A stretch of DNA of 11,075 nt, taken from positions 1-11,075 of the forward strand of contig CAZJVM010000078.1 in the NCBI GenBank assembly GCA_964549305.1. Reading direction: 5' to 3'. The notes beneath the pieces were generated by a model, which had not been told where the DNA came from, did not search any database, and saw only the letters and a list, made by a program, of their open reading frames with translations. The stretch comes from an uncultured bacterium. Its GTDB lineage: Bacteria; Schekmanbacteria; GWA2-38-11; J061. A program made the position numbers and the translations under genes. The number at the start of each line of letters is the position of its first letter. Position 1 is the stretch's first letter. This document shows positions 141-9,385 of the stretch, in pieces.

Positions 141-362
141 ATGAGTGGCGAGGACAACCAAAAGCAGAAAGAATACAGGCAATGGGGTCTTCTAAGCACA
201 ATAGGAATAGCTCTTGTGGCATCAACGTGTGTAGGTCTGGCAATCGGCTACTACCTCGATAAATGGCTTGATACTAAGCCCGTTTTCTTAATCATCTGGA
301 CAGTACTTGGCATCGTGGCGGGCTTTAAAGAGATGTTTTCAATAATAAAAAAAAGTGAGTAG
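141..362 (+). CDS. atpZ: AtpZ/AtpI-family (ATPase gene1-type) small membrane protein
   Basis: 73 aa, two hydrophobic segments, family-like motif 'IG..LV....VG..IGYYLDKWLDTKP.FLI....LGI.AGF'; lies 2 bp upstream of atpB. No obvious Shine-Dalgarno. Confidence 0.85.
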   Translation: MSGEDNQKQKEYRQWGLLSTIGIALVASTCVGLAIGYYLDKWLDTKPVFLIIWTVLGIVAGFKEMFSIIKKSE

Positions 363-364
363 AG

Positions 365-1051
365 ATGGAACATCCTCCGGTATATCTATTTATGCTTCTC
401 GGGATATCCGAGCATTTTCAGGAACAGTACCGTTACGTAATGCTCGCCGTGCTTGTTACATTGATATTGACCTTTCTATCCCTCTGGGCAAAAAGGAATC
501 TGCAGGAAATCCCTTCGGGCAAGCAGAACTTCTTTGAATTCGTAATAGGCGGAATCGTTGAATTCATGGAAGAGATTATGGGACACGAAGCGAAAAGATT
601 TCTGCCTCTTATAGGCAGTCTCGCGTTTTTCATACTCACAGCCAACATTATGGGTCTTATTCCCGGATTTGATTCGCCCACGGCAAATATCAATGTAACG
701 GGGGGATGCGCCATAGTGGTTTTCTTCACGACACATATCGTAGGAGTGAAACGCCATGGTATGAAATATATAAAGCAGTTCACGGGACCTATTGTCTGGC
801 TTACTCCCCTGATGCTTCCCATTGAGCTTATCAGCCACTTAGTAAGACCCGTATCACTTTCAATAAGGTTATTCGGAAACATTTTCGGCGGTCATCTTGT
901 AATCGGAAGCTTTCTCGGACTCGTATCTATTCCTCTCATATATCCCCTGCCTATGATGGCAATGGAGATATTTGTAGCTTTCGTGCAGACGCTGATTTTT
1001 ATGGTGCTTTCAATGATTTACATTTCTCTGGCGCTGTCAGAGGAACATTGA
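365..1051 (+). CDS. atpB: F0F1 ATP synthase subunit a
   Basis: 228 aa with motifs N.MGLIP, SPTANIN, ELISHLVRPVSLSIRLFGN (essential Arg168) and VAFVQTLIF..LS.IYI (Gln208). Confidence 0.97.
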   Translation: MEHPPVYLFMLLGISEHFQEQYRYVMLAVLVTLILTFLSLWAKRNLQEIPSGKQNFFEFVIGGIVEFMEEIMGHEAKRFLPLIGSLAFFILTANIMGLIPGFDSPTANINVTGGCAIVVFFTTHIVGVKRHGMKYIKQFTGPIVWLTPLMLPIELISHLVRPVSLSIRLFGNIFGGHLVIGSFLGLVSIPLIYPLPMMAMEIFVAFVQTLIFMVLSMIYISLALSEEH

Positions 1052-1109: not shown

Positions 1110-1436
1110 ATGAAAAAAGTTGCTCTGACAATGCTAGTTATTATGATTGCCTGCTTATTTGTTGCACCTGCGGCAATGGCAGCAGAAGGTGCCGAAGGCG
1201 CTGGAAGCGGCGTTAACTTTACCTATGTATGGGTTGCCTGCGCACTGGGAATCGCAATCGCTGCTTTCGGCGGTGCTCTCGGACAGGGACGCAGTGTAAG
1301 CGCGGCAATGGAAGGAATCGCAAGAAATCCGAATGCTTCCGGTAAGATTCAGACTGCAATGATTATCGGTCTCGCTCTTATCGAGTCTCTGGTAATTTAC
1401 GCACTCGTTGTTGTGCTGATTCTTCTCTTTAAATAG
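1110..1436 (+). CDS. atpE: F0F1 ATP synthase subunit c with N-terminal signal-peptide-like extension
   Basis: Gly-rich helix GIAIAAFGGALGQG, loop ARNP, ion-binding IESLVIY (Glu92); about 34 extra N-terminal residues. Confidence 0.97.
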   Translation: MKKVALTMLVIMIACLFVAPAAMAAEGAEGAGSGVNFTYVWVACALGIAIAAFGGALGQGRSVSAAMEGIARNPNASGKIQTAMIIGLALIESLVIYALVVVLILLFK

Positions 1437-1479
1437 ACTTGTAAGAAATAGGTTAGTAATATAGAAAAATAGTTTACTG

Positions 1480-1505
1480 GCGGAGGATAATTTTTTATCC
1501 TCCGC
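1480..1505 (+). terminator. Strong stem-loop between atpE and nuoA (partial terminator or mRNA stability hairpin)
   Basis: Perfect 11-bp inverted repeat GCGGAGGATAA (1480-1490) / TTATCCTCCGC (1495-1505) with TTTT loop. Not immediately followed by a U-tract, so terminator function is uncertain. Confidence 0.5.
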
Positions 1506-1565
1506 TGAAATTATCTTTTATAGACAGAGAATACCGCACCCCATAGAGGTGCAGGGAATAATCAA

Positions 1566-1967
1566 GTGGAAAACGGACTATATTCATACCTGCCGGTTGC
1601 AATTATGCTTGTTGTCGCAGTCGGTTTTGCCGCTGTAAATATAATACTGTCATATCTCGTAGGGAAAAGAAAGATTAACTCCGAGAAGCTTTCTCCCTAT
1701 GAGTGCGGTGTGCCTCCCATAAGTTCCGCAAGGCTTCGTTTCCCTATAAAGTTTTATCTTATCGCAATGTTATTCATTATATTCGATATCGAGGCCGTAT
1801 TCCTCTATCCCTGGGCGGCAGTGCTCAGGTCAATCAAAGGATACGGTTCCTTTGTTTTTTACGAAATGGTAATTTTTATATTCATTCTACTTGCGGGACT
1901 TCTCTATGTATGGAAGAGGAAAGCGCTTGAGTGGGAAGGCATCGGCGATGCGGAGGAAGAGAAATGA
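1566..1967 (+). CDS. nuoA: NADH-quinone oxidoreductase subunit A
   Basis: GTG start after AGGGA; motifs K.SPYECG, FYLIAMLFIIFDIEAVFLYPWA, YVWKRKALEW. Confidence 0.96.
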   Translation: MENGLYSYLPVAIMLVVAVGFAAVNIILSYLVGKRKINSEKLSPYECGVPPISSARLRFPIKFYLIAMLFIIFDIEAVFLYPWAAVLRSIKGYGSFVFYEMVIFIFILLAGLLYVWKRKALEWEGIGDAEEEK

Positions 1968-2434
1968 ATGCGGCGATGACGGATATAGATAAAAAAATAG
2001 ATGAGCTTCTGAAAAAATATCCCCGAAAGGATGCCGCGCTTCTGCCCCTTCTCCATTTGCTTCAGAATGAAGAGGGTTGGGTATCGAAGGAGGCAATGGA
2101 AAAAGCGGCACAGATTCTCGAAATCCCCACAAGCAGGGTAAAGGGCGTTGCCACGTTCTACACAATGTACAACAGGAAAAAAGTGGGAAAGTATTTTATT
2201 CAGGTTTGCACAAACATTGCCTGCCACATACTGGATGCTCAAAAGATAGTCAGCCACATAGAAAACAAACTTGGAATCAGGGTCGGTGAAACCACGCCCG
2301 ACGGCAAATTTTCTTTTATTACCGTTGAATGCCTCGGTTCCTGCGGTACCGCGCCAATGATGCAGATTAATGACGATTACTATGAAAATCTTGACACTGC
2401 AAAAGTTGACGAAATATTGGACAGTTTAAAATAG
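1964..2434 (+). CDS. nuoE: NADH-quinone oxidoreductase subunit E (24-kDa-type [2Fe-2S] protein)
   Basis: ALLPLLH..Q...GWVS, V.GVATFYTMY, and ligands CTNIAC...CLGSC..AP.MQIND. Start moved from the ORF-track 1931 to ATG 1964, because GGAGG lies at 1952-1956 and ATGA overlaps the nuoA stop; 156 aa. Confidence 0.93.
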   Translation: MNAAMTDIDKKIDELLKKYPRKDAALLPLLHLLQNEEGWVSKEAMEKAAQILEIPTSRVKGVATFYTMYNRKKVGKYFIQVCTNIACHILDAQKIVSHIENKLGIRVGETTPDGKFSFITVECLGSCGTAPMMQINDDYYENLDTAKVDEILDSLK

Positions 2435-2455
2435 CAAAGGCTTCAAGAGGAAATA

Positions 2456-3520
2456 ATGGGAGGATTGAACATCTCTGAGATTTTAACGAACACGCTTTTC
2501 ATCAAGGTCGTGGAGATACTTTTCGTTTTCGGCGCCACTATGGGTACAGTCGCCTATCTCACCCTTGTGGAAAGGCGCGTTTCCGCCTTTATGCAAAAAC
2601 GCGTGGGACCCAACCGCGTAGGATACGCCGGACTGCTTCAACCTCTTGCAGACGGAATCAAGTTTATAATGAAGGAAGACATCATTCCCCTGCATGTAAA
2701 CAAGTTCTTTTACATTCTCGCTCCCATGATTTCCATAATACCGGCGCTCGTAACCTTCGCCGTAATTCCCTTCGGCGCGCCTACGACATTCAACGGATTG
2801 CTGGAGAACCCCGTTGAATTGCAGATTACCGAGCTTAACGTGGGAGTCCTTTATATTGTGGCAATCGCTTCGCTCGGCGTCTACGGCATCGTGCTCGGCG
2901 GATGGGCATCAAACAACAAGTATTCCCTTATTGGCGGACTTCGCTCCTCGGCGCAGATGATAAGCTATGAGCTTGCAATGGGACTCGCCCTTGTGGGGGT
3001 AATCATGACGGCGGGCTCGCTTAACCTTTCGGAAATAGTTATCAGGCAGGGAAAATACTGGTTCGTATTTCCCCAGATTCTGGGTTTCATCATATTCATA
3101 ATTTCAAGCTTTGCCGAAACAAACAGGCTCCCTTTCGACCTTCCCGAAGCGGATTCCGAACTTGTCGCCGGATACCACACAGAATACAGCAGTATGAAAT
3201 TCGCAATGTTTTTTATGGCTGAATACGCAAATATGATTACCGCATCGGCGCTCATCGTAACGCTTTATTTGGGCGGATGGCAGGGAAGCCCGATAGGAGG
3301 ATGGTTTAATCTTCCCATCATCGACAAACTCTGGTTTATGCCCCTTGCGTGGTTTGCCCTGAAGGTGGGAGCGGTGCTCTTTTTCTTCGTGTGGGTCAGA
3401 TGGTCTTTCCCGAGATTCAGATACGACCAGCTTATGGCTTTCGGATGGAAGGTGCTGGTGCCTCTTGCCCTTTTGAATATTCTCATTACTGGATTTTTAA
3501 TTTTCTGGGATATCATATAA
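2456..3520 (+). CDS. nuoH: NADH-quinone oxidoreductase subunit H
   Basis: ERRVSAFMQKRVGPNRVG, LQPLADGIKFIMKE, GGLRSSAQMISYE, AETNRLPFDLPEA.SELVAGYHTEYS, PRFRYDQLM..GWK; AGAGG RBS. Confidence 0.97.
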   Translation: MGGLNISEILTNTLFIKVVEILFVFGATMGTVAYLTLVERRVSAFMQKRVGPNRVGYAGLLQPLADGIKFIMKEDIIPLHVNKFFYILAPMISIIPALVTFAVIPFGAPTTFNGLLENPVELQITELNVGVLYIVAIASLGVYGIVLGGWASNNKYSLIGGLRSSAQMISYELAMGLALVGVIMTAGSLNLSEIVIRQGKYWFVFPQILGFIIFIISSFAETNRLPFDLPEADSELVAGYHTEYSSMKFAMFFMAEYANMITASALIVTLYLGGWQGSPIGGWFNLPIIDKLWFMPLAWFALKVGAVLFFFVWVRWSFPRFRYDQLMAFGWKVLVPLALLNILITGFLIFWDII

Positions 3521-3521
3521 G

Positions 3522-4043
3522 ATGATAATGGAAACAACAGCATTCTGGTTTTTCGCGGCTCTTGCCGTAATTTCGGCGGTATTTATGGTGCTGAAGAAAA
3601 ACCCCGTAGCTTCTGTCTTTTCACTCATAATAACATTTATCTCCGTTGCAGGGCTTTATGCGACCCTTTACGCCCATTTTCTGGCAATAATACAGATACT
3701 CGTTTACGCGGGGGCGATAATGGTTTTATTCCTTTTTGTCGTAATGCTTCTTGATTTAAGGAGCGAGGAATTTTTCTTCAAAGTACAAAAAGGCGCAAAG
3801 GCAGGCGGGCTGATTCTAAGCGCCCTACTTCTTGCCGAAGTCTGGTATGTTGCCTCATCGGCTTTCGTCAATTATTCTTCAAAAGGGACAGCGACGGCAG
3901 AGGCAATCACGCGCGAAGGAGGAAACACCGCGCTTCTCGGAAAACTCCTTTTTACCGAGTATCTTCTCCCCTTTGAGCTTACATCGGTGCTTCTTCTCGT
4001 CGCAATCATCGGCGCGGTGCTTATGTCAAGGAGGGTAAAGTAA
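3522..4043 (+). CDS. nuoJ: NADH-quinone oxidoreductase subunit J
   Basis: [53 protein letters not shown]; alternative start ATG 3528. Confidence 0.96.
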
Positions 4044-4345
4044 TGATTACGCTGAACCACTACCTCATTCTCGCGGCAATACTTTTTTCAATAGGCGCCG
4101 TGGGAGTATTTGTGAGAAGAAGCGCGCTGATAATATTTATGTGCATAGAGCTAATGCTGAATTCGGTAAATATAACTTTTGTGGCTTTTTCAAGGTATCT
4201 TGACAATATGGACGGACAACTTTTCGTCTTCTTCGTAATGACAGTCGCCGCGGCGGAAGTTGTCGTGGGACTTGCAATCATATTGCTCATCTTCAGGCAA
4301 AGATCAACGGTCAATGTGGATGAAATTAACCTGATGAAAGGATAG
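4043..4345 (+). CDS. nuoK: NADH-quinone oxidoreductase subunit K
   Basis: 100 aa; MCIELMLN and [12 protein letters not shown] carry both conserved Glu; TAATG overlap with the nuoJ stop. Confidence 0.97.
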
Positions 4346-4357
4346 GAAAGATAACCG

Positions 4358-6286
4358 ATGCTTGATTATATTTGGCTGATTCCCATACTTCCGCTCATCG
4401 GATTTGCGATAAACGGGCTTTTCGGAAACTACATAGGAAAAAAGCTTGTGGGATTTGTGGGCTGTACATCAGTTGGGCTCGCTTTTCTCCTTTCCCTCGC
4501 CAGCTTTTCCAATCTCCTTTCTATGCCCGCGGAAGAACGGATTTTCGAGAAAACCCTATATACCTGGATTGGAAGCGGCACATTCAAAGCGGACTTGTGT
4601 TTTCAGCTCGACCCGCTTTCGGGAATAATGATTCTGGTTGTAACGGGAGTGGGATTTCTCATACACGTCTATTCAATGGGCTATATGCACGATGACGAAG
4701 GTTACGGACGCTATTTTACATATCTCAACCTTTTCACATTTTCTATGCTTGTCCTCGTTCTCGGAGGAAATTTCCTTGTTATGTTTGTAGGATGGGAAGC
4801 GGTCGGACTCTGCTCATATCTTCTCATTGGCTTCTTCTATAAAAAGAAGAGCGCCACCGATGCGGGCAAAAAAGCATTTATTGTCAACAGAATCGGTGAT
4901 TTCGGATTTATTCTCGGTATAATGTTAATCTTTTTCACCTTCCACTCGGTGGATTTTCAGGAGGTCTTTTCACAGGCGGAAGCGAATTTCCCCGTAGGAA
5001 GCAACACAATAGTGTGGATTACTCTCCTGCTTTTCATAGGCGCAACAGGTAAATCAGCGCAGATTCCTCTTTTTGTATGGCTTCCCGACGCAATGGAAGG
5101 CCCTACTCCCGTAAGCGCGCTAATTCACGCGGCAACGATGGTTACAGCAGGCGTTTATATGGTCGCCCGATGCAGTACCCTTTTCATAATCGCTCCTGAA
5201 GCTATGCTCACCGTGGCGATAATCGGCGCAATCACTGCGATATTTGCCGCATCCATAGGGCTTGTGCAAACGGACATAAAGAAAGTCCTCGCCTACTCCA
5301 CCGTCAGCCAGCTTGGTTATATGTTTCTTGCCTGCGGAGTTGGAGCATTCGGCGCGGCAATATTTCATCTTATGACGCACGCATTTTTCAAGGCGCTTCT
5401 CTTTTTGGGTTCGGGAAGCGTGATTCACGCAATGGGAGGCGAGCAGGACATACGGAAGATGGGCGCCCTCAGGAAGAAAATGCCCGTAACATTCTATACA
5501 TTCCTGCTTGCGACACTGGCAATTGCCGGAATTCCCGGTTTCTCCGGTTTCTTCAGCAAGGATGAAATACTCTGGAAATCATTCTCATCGCCTTACGGTC
5601 ATACGCTTCTATGGGTAACAGGCGCCGTCGCGGCGGGATTTACTTCATTCTATATGTTTCGCCTCGTATTCCTCACTTTCTGTGGCGAATCGAGAGTCGA
5701 ACCTCACGCCCTGGAGCATCTGCACGAATCTCCGCCTTCGATGACTATTCCCCTTTCCATACTCGGAGTGCTTTCGGTAATAGGCGGTTATGTGGGAATC
5801 CCGCATATACTCGGCGGACATAACAGGATAGAGGGGTTTCTCGAGCCAGTATTCCGTTTCGCCGCTGAAAGCACAGAAAGGGCTGAAGGGCACGGAAGCG
5901 AAAGCCTCGAGATGACTCTGATGATTGCATCCGTTGCAATCGCCTTGGGTGGACTCCTCCTTGCCTACTACTTTTATCTCAGGAACAAAAACGTTCCTGA
6001 AAAGCTCGCAAAGAGTTTTTCACCGATATATAACCTGCTTCTTAATAAATATTATGTTGACGAAATTTACGACGCGCTCATTGTCAACCCAATCAAAAGG
6101 GGCGCGACAATACTTTGGGAATTCTTTGACGAAAAGGTTATTGACGGGCTTGTTAACGGAGTTGCCGAATTCTTTGAAGACGGCGGACTCAGCTTGAGAA
6201 ATATACAAAGCGGAAAAGCGCAGACATATCTTGTTTCAATACTTCTCGGCGCGGTAATTCTGGCAGGATATATTCTCGTTTTCTGA
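4358..6286 (+). CDS. nuoL: NADH-quinone oxidoreductase subunit L
   Basis: 642 aa; GWEAVGLCSYLLIGF, GKSAQIPL..WLPDAMEGPTPVSALIHAATMV, HLMTHAFFKA, FFSKDEI; C-terminal transverse-helix region present (NKYYVDEIY...IDGLVNG...QSG..Q.Y). Confidence 0.97.
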   Translation: MLDYIWLIPILPLIGFAINGLFGNYIGKKLVGFVGCTSVGLAFLLSLASFSNLLSMPAEERIFEKTLYTWIGSGTFKADLCFQLDPLSGIMILVVTGVGFLIHVYSMGYMHDDEGYGRYFTYLNLFTFSMLVLVLGGNFLVMFVGWEAVGLCSYLLIGFFYKKKSATDAGKKAFIVNRIGDFGFILGIMLIFFTFHSVDFQEVFSQAEANFPVGSNTIVWITLLLFIGATGKSAQIPLFVWLPDAMEGPTPVSALIHAATMVTAGVYMVARCSTLFIIAPEAMLTVAIIGAITAIFAASIGLVQTDIKKVLAYSTVSQLGYMFLACGVGAFGAAIFHLMTHAFFKALLFLGSGSVIHAMGGEQDIRKMGALRKKMPVTFYTFLLATLAIAGIPGFSGFFSKDEILWKSFSSPYGHTLLWVTGAVAAGFTSFYMFRLVFLTFCGESRVEPHALEHLHESPPSMTIPLSILGVLSVIGGYVGIPHILGGHNRIEGFLEPVFRFAAESTERAEGHGSESLEMTLMIASVAIALGGLLLAYYFYLRNKNVPEKLAKSFSPIYNLLLNKYYVDEIYDALIVNPIKRGATILWEFFDEKVIDGLVNGVAEFFEDGGLSLRNIQSGKAQTYLVSILLGAVILAGYILVF

Positions 6287-6322
6287 TAGTGGATTTATAA
6301 AATATTAAATGAGGAGTTAACA

Positions 6323-7915
6323 TTGTTAAGTGTTGTAACATTTTTCCCGTTGGTGGGCATAATCTTTATTCTTCTCACGGGAAGAAACAACAAGGGTATA
6401 ATCCGTTTTATCGCTCTTGCCACAACGGTCATCGATTTTCTCTATTCTCTGAGAATATATAACGGATTTAACAGCGCGACGGCAAACTTTCAGTTTACGG
6501 AAAAACTGCCGTGGATTTCCGGGCTTGGCATAGATTATTCTGTGGGAATAGACGGAATAAGCCTTCTTCTTGTTATGCTTACCACATTCCTTACGCCAAT
6601 CGTCATACTCGCGTCGTGGAGCGCGATAGAGGATAAGGTAAAGGAATATATGATTTCAATGCTTCTCCTCGAAGTGGGAATGATAGGCGTTTTCGTCGCC
6701 ACAGACCTTTTCCTTTTTTATGTATTCTGGGAAATAATGCTCATTCCCATGTATCTTCTCATAGGCATCTGGGGAGGACCGCGAAGGATTTACGCGGCTG
6801 TAAAGTTTGTCCTTTATACAATGGTCGGAAGCGTACTTATGCTTCTTGCCATACTTTATCTCTACTTTATGAATTACCAGCAGACCGGAGAATACAGCTT
6901 CAGTCTTTTCGATTTTTATAAACTGCATATACCAATTGAAATTCAGCCGTGGCTTTTCCTTGCATTCGCGCTTGCATTTGCCATAAAAGTCCCCATGTTT
7001 CCCTTCCATACGTGGTTGCCCGACGCGCACGTTGAAGCGCCGACGGGGGGAAGTGTCATCCTTGCAGGCGTACTTCTCAAAATGGGCACATACGGCTTTT
7101 TGAGATTCTGCCTTCCTCTTTTTCCCAATGCGGCGTTCAAGTTTATGCCCTATTTATGCGTACTTGCAATAATCGGAATTATTTACGGCGCCCTCGTATC
7201 TATGGTGCAGAAGGACATCAAAAAGCTTGTGGCATATTCAAGCGTGAGCCACCTCGGATTCGTTATGCTCGGAATATTCTCTTTCAATCAGCAGGGGATG
7301 GAAGGAAGCATAATTCAGATGGTTAACCACGGGCTTAGTACGGGAGCGCTTTTCCTGCTTGTTGGAATGATATATGAAAGAAGGCATACGAGAATGATTG
7401 CGGACTTCGGAGGAATCGTGAAAACTGTCCCCGTCTTCTCCACATTCTTTATGATTGTAACGCTGTCATCGATTGGACTTCCCGGGCTTAACGGATTTAT
7501 CGGAGAATTTCTCATTCTCGTGGGGACTTTTCAGGCAAGCAGGGTTTATGCGGCATTCGCCGCGACGGGAATAATTCTTGCCGCCGTTTATATGCTCTGG
7601 ATGGTACAGAGATTTCTTTTCGGAGAAATCACCAAGGAAGAGAACAGGAACATTTCCGACATCAATCTGAGAGAGCTAATAGTCATTCTTCCGGTAATCT
7701 TTTTCATTATAATGATTGGCGTATATCCTCAACCCTTCCTCGAGAAGATGCATGCTTCAGTGCAGGGACTTCTCAGCAAGGTGAATGTGCAGTACCAGTT
7801 TGTAGAAAAAGAGAATGACGATTTGGTAAAAACAATGACTAACTTAAAAAATGTTTCGCTTAAATTTGATTCAGAGCGGGACAGGACAAAGAAAGAGCAG
7901 ATGCTCGAACTTTAG
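6323..7915 (+). CDS. nuoM: NADH-quinone oxidoreductase subunit M
   Basis: TTG start after GAGGAG (6311-6316); FYVFWE...[53 protein letters not shown]. Confidence 0.97.
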
Positions 7916-7930
7916 GGAGTATTTAAAAGA

Positions 7931-9385
7931 ATGCCCGATTTATCACAGTTAAACATAAACATGCAGGCGATTATGCCGGAGATAGTGCTTTGTCTCGGCG
8001 CGCTTGCCGTGCTTCTTCTCGATTCGGTTTTCCAAAGAATGAGCAGGCAGTTTCTCACTTTTGTTTCCATTATTTCAATTCTCGTGTCATTTCGCCTGAC
8101 GATGAATTTGTGGGGGCATAATGTAACGGCATTTAACGGAATGTTTATTGTTGACCGCTTTTCATTCTTCTGCAAGATGCTCTTCTTCATCATCTCCTTT
8201 CTTATAATTGTTACATCTTCAGGTTATCTGAGAGATTTCAATTTCGGGAAAGGCGAATATTACGCTCTCATACTCTTTTCATCAGCGGGAATGTCATTTA
8301 TCGCAAGCGGCGCGGACTTACTCATAATATTTCTTTCAATCGAAATTATGTCAATCGCCTTTTATGTTCTCGCAGGATTTGAAAGAAGCAATCCTCTTTC
8401 AAACGAGGCATCACTTAAATACTTTCTCGCAGGCGCCTTCGCTTCGGGATTTCTACTTTACGGAATCGCTCTTTTATACGGTTTTTCGGGAACAACGAAT
8501 CTCAGAAAATTAGGCGCTGCCATTTCGGGAAACTCATCGCTTCCCAATATGGTTTTCATTGGTATGGCGCTTCTGTTTGTGGGATTTTTCTTTAAAATCG
8601 CCGCCGTGCCATTTCATATGTGGACACCGGATGTATATCAGGGCGCACCCACTCCCGTAACTGCATATATGGCAACTGCCGGAAAGGTCGCAGGCTTTAT
8701 TGCCCTTGTGCGTGTAATACAAACATCATTCCTTCCAATCATAAACGATATGAGTGAAGTGATATGGATACTTTGCGCGCTCACGATGACGCTTGGAAAC
8801 CTTGTTGCGCTCGCGCAGACAAATATAAAGAGAATGCTTGCCTATTCGAGCATTGCCCACGCGGGATACCTGCTTATCGCGTTCGTTGCGCTTAACGAAT
8901 TTTTCATTCCTTCCCTGCTATTCTACCTGCTTGCCTATGCTCTGATGAATATAGGCGCTTTTGCCGTTATAACGGCGCTTAGCAGCAGAGACAAGGAGGC
9001 GGTTAACATCTCCACTTACGCCGGCATAGGATTCAGATATCCAATGCTCGGAGTCTGTATGGCAATATTTATGATATCCCTTGCCGGAATTCCCCCGACA
9101 GCGGGATTTATGGGAAAGTTTTACATCTTCTCCTCGGCTATAAAATCGGGATATATCAGTCTTGCGATAATAGGCGTAATAAACAGTGTTGTTTCAGTAT
9201 TCTATTACTTCAGGATAATCGTCTATATGTATATGAAAGAGCCTGAAGGTGAGTGGAGTGGAGGCAGGTTTTCGCCACAGCTTCTCGCGGTGATTTTCTC
9301 GTGCGCCGCAGTAATAATGATTATAGGAATATTCCCTGATTTTGCCCTGCGCCTTGCCAAAATTTCAAAGATAGCAATCTGGTAA
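7931..9385 (+). CDS. nuoN: NADH-quinone oxidoreductase subunit N
   Basis: GEYY, IE.MS...Y.LAG, EASLKYFL.G, FKIAAVPFHMWTPDVYQGAP, KRMLAYSSIAHAGY, SLAGIPPTAGFMGKF; AGGGAG RBS. Confidence 0.97.
   Translation: MPDLSQLNINMQAIMPEIVLCLGALAVLLLDSVFQRMSRQFLTFVSIISILVSFRLTMNLWGHNVTAFNGMFIVDRFSFFCKMLFFIISFLIIVTSSGYLRDFNFGKGEYYALILFSSAGMSFIASGADLLIIFLSIEIMSIAFYVLAGFERSNPLSNEASLKYFLAGAFASGFLLYGIALLYGFSGTTNLRKLGAAISGNSSLPNMVFIGMALLFVGFFFKIAAVPFHMWTPDVYQGAPTPVTAYMATAGKVAGFIALVRVIQTSFLPIINDMSEVIWILCALTMTLGNLVALAQTNIKRMLAYSSIAHAGYLLIAFVALNEFFIPSLLFYLLAYALMNIGAFAVITALSSRDKEAVNISTYAGIGFRYPMLGVCMAIFMISLAGIPPTAGFMGKFYIFSSAIKSGYISLAIIGVINSVVSVFYYFRIIVYMYMKEPEGEWSGGRFSPQLLAVIFSCAAVIMIIGIFPDFALRLAKISKIAIW

Follow-up and report, generated by a model that had tools for sequence, protein, structure and literature searches.

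The best-described gene arrangement for the 14-subunit NADH:quinone oxidoreductase (complex I) is the canonical operon running from nuoA to nuoN, as in E. coli (nuo), Thermus thermophilus (nqo), and Paracoccus. Its products NuoE and NuoF normally form a tight pair. The Nuo11 enzymes (NDH-1/Fpo types) do without E, F, and G, and have B, C, D, and I encoded alongside the membrane genes. Split nuo gene sets in general are already known: in the accessible parts of two papers, most clades are said to contain both split and single-cluster forms of complex I (Shirsath et al., 2025, PMC12361115), and Desulfurobacterium to have 11 genes (nuoABCDHIJKLMN) in one operon and three (nuoEFG) in another (PMC12724263). 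The window analyzed here is the whole of an 11,075-base contig (CAZJVM010000078.1, here C78), one of the 169 contigs in the assembly (GCA_964549305.1, here G000) of an uncultured bacterium of the phylum Schekmanbacteria. It carries a nuo cluster with the order A-E-H-J-K-L-M-N. Together with a complementary cluster on a second contig (C24), this very probably encodes one ordinary proton-pumping 14-subunit NADH:quinone oxidoreductase in two loci, a third locus (C75) encoding a separate enzyme.

Compared to the canonical operon, the same 14 subunits, the order within each half, the pump residues, and the cluster ligands are all retained, but the genes alternate between two loci (A in one, B and CD in the other, then E, then F and G, then H, then I, and finally J-N), with closed junctions and a fusion of C and D. 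The splits in the accessible text of the sources above run along module borders, with E-F-G of the NADH-input (N) module set apart. Here, NuoE is instead separated from NuoF and NuoG and kept with the membrane genes, and the quinone (Q)-module genes leave the membrane-gene locus as well.

Genes in the window were called by Pfam and NCBIfam profile searches, with bit scores compared to family cut-offs (Table 1). On the + strand, atpZ-atpB-atpE is followed by a hairpin and then by nuoA-E-H-J-K-L-M-N. These searches found no nuoB, C, D, F, G, or I in the window, leaving nuoE as the sole peripheral-arm gene of the locus. This is the gene content and order given in a preliminary description of the DNA, made from its letters, and the three junctions that it described as closed are so in the sequence: the nuoA stop codon (TGA, 1965-1967) overlaps an ATG at 1964 (as ATGA), for a 4-nt overlap with nuoE; 21 nt separate the end of nuoE (2434) from the start of nuoH (2456); and a single nucleotide lies between the end of nuoH (3520) and the start of nuoJ (3522). 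The longest nuoE frame begins with a GTG at 1931; since alignments to its relatives begin only at residue 11-22, the start is likely 1964. The nuoA start is backed by the N-termini of its relatives.

At the charged positions that the complex I literature treats as important in NuoA, K, L, M, and N, alignments bear out the earlier listing of intact residues: the FDIE motif of NuoA; a Glu in both helices of NuoK (..CIELM.. and ..AAAEVV..); and, in each of NuoL, M, and N, the Glu of transmembrane helix (TM) 5, the Lys of TM7, and the TM12 residue (Lys in NuoL, as Lys-Asp; Glu in NuoM; Lys in NuoN). NuoM and NuoN have a Lys in TM8 as well. The set is that expected of a proton-pumping membrane arm. 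Over residues 1-486, NuoM aligns with a NuoM chain of solved structure, 8qby_M (E 4e-139). In NuoE, the four Cys ligands are present as C-x4-C ... C-x3-C.

Searches of the whole genome for the NuoB and NuoD families found two sites each, on contigs C24 and C75. The C24 locus, all on the same strand, runs in canonical order through nuoB, a fused nuoCD, nuoF, nuoG, and nuoI. Its NuoB, C, D, F, and I exceed the NCBIfam cut-offs, including the TIGR01959 equivalog for NuoF (629.5 vs. 558.65 bits). Upstream of nuoB are a peroxiredoxin gene and, between it and nuoB, a small open reading frame (unannotated, ~90 aa, at about 4750-5020 of locus L007); downstream of nuoI are genes for a PF02636 methyltransferase and a ZIP transporter, and lipB. 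A T-run and a TTGCAA-like element upstream of nuoB are conserved in G000 and in two other genomes of the phylum (G002 and G003), which suggests that the C24 locus may have its own promoter. By eye, no regulatory motif was seen to be shared between the regions upstream of nuoA in the window and of nuoB on C24.

The methyltransferase gene (L007, 10834-11952) directly follows nuoI. NDUFAF7/MidA, an assembly factor for complex I in mitochondria, belongs to PF02636, and the C24 protein may mature the Q-module; it had no NCBIfam match at E 1e-20. A PF02636 gene follows nuoI in four of the phylum's genomes (G000, G001, G002, and G003), the fifth contig (G004) ending before this point. It is followed in turn by lipB in G000-G002, and a ZIP transporter gene is found in G000, G002, and G003.

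The third locus, on C75, is a complete and separate 11-subunit operon, nuoA-B-C-D-H-I-J-K-L-M-N. It fits the Nuo11 definition, having B, C, D, and I alongside the membrane genes and no E, F, or G; the window does not, lacking B, C, D, and I and having E. Identity between the window genes and their C75 paralogues is 39-57%, with NuoL and NuoM at 52-57%.

Copy numbers were counted with phmmer, the queries being 24 Nuo proteins and the target the complete set of 21,988 six-frame open reading frames of at least 50 aa in the G000 genome (completeness rated at 100%, contamination at 0.44%). There are exactly two copies each of A, B, C, D, H, I, J, K, L, M, and N, one on C78 or C24 and the other on C75, and a single copy each of Nuo-type E, F, and G. 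By these counts, the window (eight subunits) and C24 (six subunits in five genes) therefore make up exactly one 14-subunit complex I. All of the core subunits A-N of a Nuo14 enzyme are encoded by the organism, not in a single nuoA-N operon, but in two loci on different contigs; a full subunit set over at least two loci is what is meant by a split complex I. The subunits of the NADH-input module are likewise all encoded: NuoF, the subunit of the FMN (flavin mononucleotide)/NADH site and cluster N3, NuoE, that of the [2Fe-2S] cluster N1a, and NuoG, that of the Fe-S chain. The same phmmer search found no further NuoD-like or antiporter-like genes in the genome, and hence no Mrp and no group-4 hydrogenase. 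With a partner locus present, its residues intact, and no other antiporter-like genes in the genome, the window does not have the features of a relic or stand-alone arm, or of an Mrp system.

Beyond these, the only E/F/G-like genes of the genome are on contig C37 (locus L149, 3615-6805, - strand), where they make up a HydB/Bfu-like trio that includes a NuoE-like gene of its own. Its members are a NuoE-like protein of 170 aa, a NuoF-like protein of 634 aa with two extra ferredoxin-type clusters, and a protein of 253 aa resembling the NuoG N-terminus; the trio adjoins a gene resembling those for FAD (flavin adenine dinucleotide) oxidoreductases. The trio is soluble and probably has nothing to do with complex I, being more likely a bifurcating or NAD(P)H-linked module.

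The division of labor would then be as follows. The window would supply the membrane arm, NuoA, H, J, K, L, M, and N, plus NuoE, and C24 would supply the Q-module, with B, CD, and I docking on NuoH, A, and J. The window's NuoE would join NuoF and NuoG from C24 to form the NADH-input module, so that the enzyme would be assembled in trans from two transcription units. We infer that the products of both loci enter one complex.

This arrangement is not peculiar to one strain. The phylum is represented in the genome collection by five species (G000-G004), from one class and two families, and in all five the A-E-H-J order, the nuoB-CD-F-G-I cluster (the G004 contig ends inside nuoI), and the A-B-C-D head of the 11-subunit operon are found. 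Also in all five, atpB and atpE lie directly upstream of nuoA; atpZ precedes them in four, the G004 contig ending before it. G002 has the three loci on contigs 614, 46, and 650 kb long; its A-E-H locus lies within the 614-kb contig, and the two partial loci are on different contigs and at least about 148 kb apart. The preliminary description had allowed that its gene order might prove to be the documented norm of the lineage, with the remaining genes in a second cluster: the norm and the second cluster are both there (five of five species), while for the documentation no paper was found.

The order was also looked for in other lineages. Comparison loci were anchored on NuoE relatives, so that the sample is biased by construction, and neighbors were called as best-hit labels of stop-to-stop frames, in which a few rows with overlapping frames are scrambled. 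Within this sample, none of 185 loci from other lineages has the A-E-H order: it is absent from 25 loci of 25 other, distant genomes, from 80 species-genome loci (44-60% NuoE identity), and from 80 metagenome loci (47-59% NuoE identity; the downstream neighbor readable in 64, the upstream in 68). One of the species-genome loci (L094) has E followed by H. Among the metagenome loci, E is followed by H in three (L221, L223, and L243) and A by E in one (L241), with none having both. H comes directly before J in eight of the genome loci, and before I in 49. The metagenome scan, in which very close records were possibly omitted, yielded no further member of the lineage, its best NuoE identity being 59%. 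All of these loci were found via NuoE, and the claim that NuoE always stays with the membrane genes was accordingly rejected.

Several lineages do have gapped operons of a milder kind. In four of the species-genome loci (L050, L051, L068, and L080) and in metagenome loci, the order is A-C-D-E-F-G-H-J..N, with B and I elsewhere and the same clean style of removal; in three genomes with this order (G041, G042, and G045), nuoB and nuoI each stand alone at other sites. The order A-CD-E-H-J-K-N is found in L094 (G044), and also in L221; the G044 genome has a nuoB-nuoF-nuoG cluster elsewhere and a lone nuoI at yet another site. In L094 itself (12295-13887), nuoK is directly followed by a nuoN-like gene and then the contig end, with no nuoL or nuoM in the locus. 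The Leptospira locus L083 (G043) has A-B-C-D-E-F-H-J..N and a nuoG-nuoI pair elsewhere, and L241 has A-E-F-G-H. Where the removed genes are clustered in these other lineages, they too keep the canonical order. None of these milder layouts drops all of B, CD, F, G, and I, unlike the window, which by gene content is the most extreme member of the series. A quick tree of NuoH has the A-CD-E-H group as sister to the group lacking B and I (support 98), within a clade (99) that does not contain the window's; because of this, the E-H junction probably arose more than once, and separately in the A-CD-E-H group.

Do the two halves share an origin? In a NuoD tree (37 rows, by quick search, with Shimodaira-Hasegawa-like approximate likelihood ratio support, SH-aLRT, only), the five NuoCD sequences of the C24 type make up a clade of their own (100), nested in a larger group (99) together with canonical 14-gene operons; this larger group includes L047, L039, L041, L050, and L053, and the 11-subunit NuoD sequences fall on the other side. 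Similarity rankings point the same way. All nine of the subunits compared (H, L, M, N, B, CD, F, G, and I) are carried by 40 of 80 outside loci; seven of the eight loci ranked highest by similarity to the window's H, L, M, and N are also among the top eight for the B, CD, F, G, and I of C24, and L047, with a canonical A-to-N operon, is first in both rankings. The Spearman correlation between the two is 0.45, with a p-value that overstates the case, related genomes not being independent. The Q-module of C75 is closest to a different, Nitrospirota-type set. It is likely, on these grounds, that the window and C24 halves share descent. The NuoH and NuoL trees were not used for this question, their relevant supports being 78-83 and positions changing with taxon sampling.

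The nearest outside relatives (L047, L053, and L041 among others) have single colinear A-to-N operons. Six loci (L039, L041, L043, L044, L047, and L075) have tandem nuo operons, with an ..H-I-J-K-L-M-N set directly upstream of a full A-to-N set. Paired operons, the raw material of reciprocal loss, are common among these relatives.

Several points weigh against an interpretation of the window and C24 as one enzyme, or as halves of one ancestral set. The C24 NuoG is short (515 aa) and falls slightly below its NCBIfam cut-off (445.9 vs. 470.05), although it has the Fe-S domains of the N-terminus. Trees differ in where they place the window's NuoH at depth (support 78 in one, 80-81 in the next), and NuoL of the window is a sister, at weak support (83), of the 11-subunit NuoL of C75. 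The likely common descent of the two halves is argued from the NuoD tree and from rankings of related genomes that are not independent. The route by which they separated is read from gene order, the spacers in G002-G004 being free of relics. The assembly of the products into one complex and the co-expression of the two loci are predictions from sequence. Finally, the tetranucleotide correlation of C78 with the genome (0.945) is slightly below the 5th percentile (0.952) for the 95 contigs of at least 8 kb; the values for C75 and C24 are 0.946 and 0.996. The low correlations of C78 and C75 can probably be put down to their being short contigs rich in membrane-protein genes, and that of C78 is not read as a binning error because long contigs of its relatives carry the same locus.

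This composition, together with the short contig and an assembly in 169 pieces, might suggest that C78 is misassembled or mis-binned, its gaps resulting from a collapse between two nuo operons. The chance of this is close to negligible: the same order and junctions recur in the assemblies of four other species, in G002 well inside a long contig, so that the synteny check called for in the preliminary description speaks against an accident of assembly. A collapse is also implausible because the window genes and their C75 paralogues are too dissimilar. A check on the junctions, for which read mapping had been proposed at the same time, succeeded in part with assembled contigs. Among contigs from other public runs, A/E is bridged in two runs (X1 record 2 and X2 record 10) and H/J in three (X1 record 7, X2 record 12, and X3 record 19). 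For E/H, no contig among those listed bridges the junction with at least 31 letters on each side, X1 records 3 and 5 stopping at 2439. These runs may include the source sample, making them weaker support than the four independent species. One X1 contig that skips 2972-3415 within nuoH, with a shorter side of 21 letters and 90% likeness, was taken to be from another organism. The products of the locus might also serve in other ways. The preliminary description had considered a spare membrane arm, sharing or competing for the hydrophilic arm of a second operon, in which case the C24 products would be a soluble NADH dehydrogenase or have some other role. A second operon does exist, on C75, its NuoL and NuoM share 52-57% identity with the window's, and the weak NuoL sister pairing means that cross-docking would not be structurally absurd. 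The idea is nevertheless very improbable, and unnecessary: C75 encodes an A, H, J, K, L, M, and N of its own, and because every core subunit of the membrane arm and Q-module occurs exactly twice, nothing needs to be shared. Moreover, NuoB, NuoCD, and NuoI of C24 would have no membrane partner other than the window's arm, its NuoF and NuoG have only the window's NuoE, and the three loci have been kept together in all five species. A pump module with a non-canonical electron input, also proposed earlier, could draw on the Bfu/HydB-like trio of C37. It does not survive the finding of B, C, D, F, G, and I in the genome, and is extremely improbable: the membrane arm needs NuoB, NuoD, and NuoI to pass electrons to quinone, all of these are in the exactly complementary cluster, and the C37 trio, with its own NuoE-like gene, has no need of the window's.

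How a single complex I came to be encoded in this way is a separate matter. The preliminary description's remaining suggestion, operon duplication followed by reciprocal gene loss, predicted a complementary B-C-D-F-G-I locus, and this is what C24 contains; the duplication and loss themselves fit the colinearity of the halves, and we infer them from it. The layout would in this case derive from two colinear copies of a 14-gene operon, each having lost what the other kept. The same enzyme might have had another history, by stepwise relocation of the B-C-D, F-G, and I blocks, or by mixing of xenologous operons after horizontal transfer, and this is possible, if distinctly the less probable course. 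Single relocated genes are indeed found elsewhere (the lone nuoB and nuoI of G041, G042, and G045, and the lone nuoI of G044), and tandem nuo operons in close relatives (L039, L041, L047, and L075) would give material for mixing. One argument against relocation is that three blocks would land in canonical order on the same strand only about one time in 24, a simple count that serves as an estimate rather than a test; one against two donors is that the same outside operons are nearest to the window genes and to those of C24. Reciprocal loss is favored here because two colinear copies would automatically keep the A-to-N order and strand in both halves. A tblastn search of 24 Nuo proteins against eight spacers of G002-G004, at E up to 10, found no relics of lost genes, returning flanking gene ends and noise only. 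In the second family (loci L136 of G003 and L141 of G004), the A/E, E/H, H/J, and L/M spacers are 60-220 nt long and filled by G+C-rich palindromic repeats resembling REP (repetitive extragenic palindromic) elements, with related motifs across several spacers; no trace of lost genes was found in these repeat-filled spacers.

The open full-text literature, with complex I phylogenomics in subscription journals outside the search, did not yield this exact interleaved partition. The gene layout is thus apparently a phylum-wide and undescribed variant of split complex I, as far as the accessible parts of the sources extend; figure S4 or the supplement of PMC12361115 may list such layouts. For annotation, the consequence is that a pathway caller that was given only one of the two loci would, throughout the phylum, report an incomplete complex I or a relic of its membrane arm, when the organism appears to have a full NADH-oxidizing complex I as well as an 11-subunit enzyme. 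The layout also separates nuoE from nuoF, the genes of a tight pair. For operon evolution, two colinear and complementary halves kept across a phylum would be a clean natural case of order-preserving fission, and the milder versions in unrelated lineages offer a comparative series for testing duplication and reciprocal loss.

It is conceivable, but rather doubtful, that the interleaved split is a selected design, with duplication and reciprocal loss recurrently sorting genes into membrane-arm operons and [4Fe-4S] peripheral ones. If so, a membrane-arm operon linked to F0 subunits a and c and retaining NuoE would stand opposite a peripheral operon with its own promoter and an NDUFAF7-like factor; the arms might then be regulated or pre-assembled separately, and possibly even combined between the two complex I enzymes.

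Table 1. Features of the 11,075-base window, with profile scores in bits (vs. the family cut-off where two values are given).
Feature	Position	Strand	Evidence or remarks
atpZ/AtpI-like small membrane protein	141..362	+	PF09527, 66 vs. 26.6
atpB, F0 subunit a	365..1051	+	PF00119, 194; TIGR01131, 144 vs. 103
atpE, F0 subunit c	1110..1436	+	PF00137, 60; TIGR01260, 54.5 vs. 44
Strong hairpin between atpE and nuoA	1478..1507	+	13-pair stem; top of hairpin scan
nuoA, membrane arm, ND3 homologue	1566..1967	+	PF00507, 126; FDIE motif
nuoE, soluble [2Fe-2S] subunit of NADH-input module	1964..2434	+	PF01257, 201; TIGR01958, 189 vs. 142
nuoH, ND1 homologue, quinone-channel subunit	2456..3520	+	PF00146, 428; NF004741, 370 vs. 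305
nuoJ	3522..4043	+	PF00499, 143
nuoK	4043..4345	+	PF00420, 104; NF004320, 134 vs. 57
nuoL, antiporter-like, with C-terminal long-helix region	4358..6286	+	TIGR01974, 822 vs. 407; PF00361, PF00662, PF01010
nuoM	6323..7915	+	TIGR01972, 664 vs. 264
nuoN	7931..9385	+	TIGR01770, 458 vs. 333
FG-GAP/VCBS-repeat protein gene, 514 aa	9468..11012	-	Closes the contig

The hairpin between atpE and nuoA has a predicted energy of -23 kcal/mol (z -6.66), and none of 200 shuffled sequences folds equally well. It is found at the equivalent atpE/nuoA site in G001, G002, and G004. Its U-tract is weak. It is likely to be a terminator or attenuator, which would separate the nuo genes from atpZBE as a unit of their own.

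The ATP synthase genes are likewise split. Those for subunits a and c and the AtpZ-like protein abut the complex I membrane-arm genes, a linkage of atpB-atpE to nuoA seen in all five species, and the atpZ-like gene has an orthologue at the matching position in G001, G002, and G003. The remaining ATP synthase genes are on another contig of G000 (C29; locus L148, 2660-8829), in the order atpI-like, F', F, H, A, G, D, C.

At the other end of the window, the FG-GAP gene is convergent on nuoN, and the spacer between the two holds A/T runs and a short hairpin. The stretch in which this gene lies is clearly lower in G+C (0.33) than the nuo genes (0.43).

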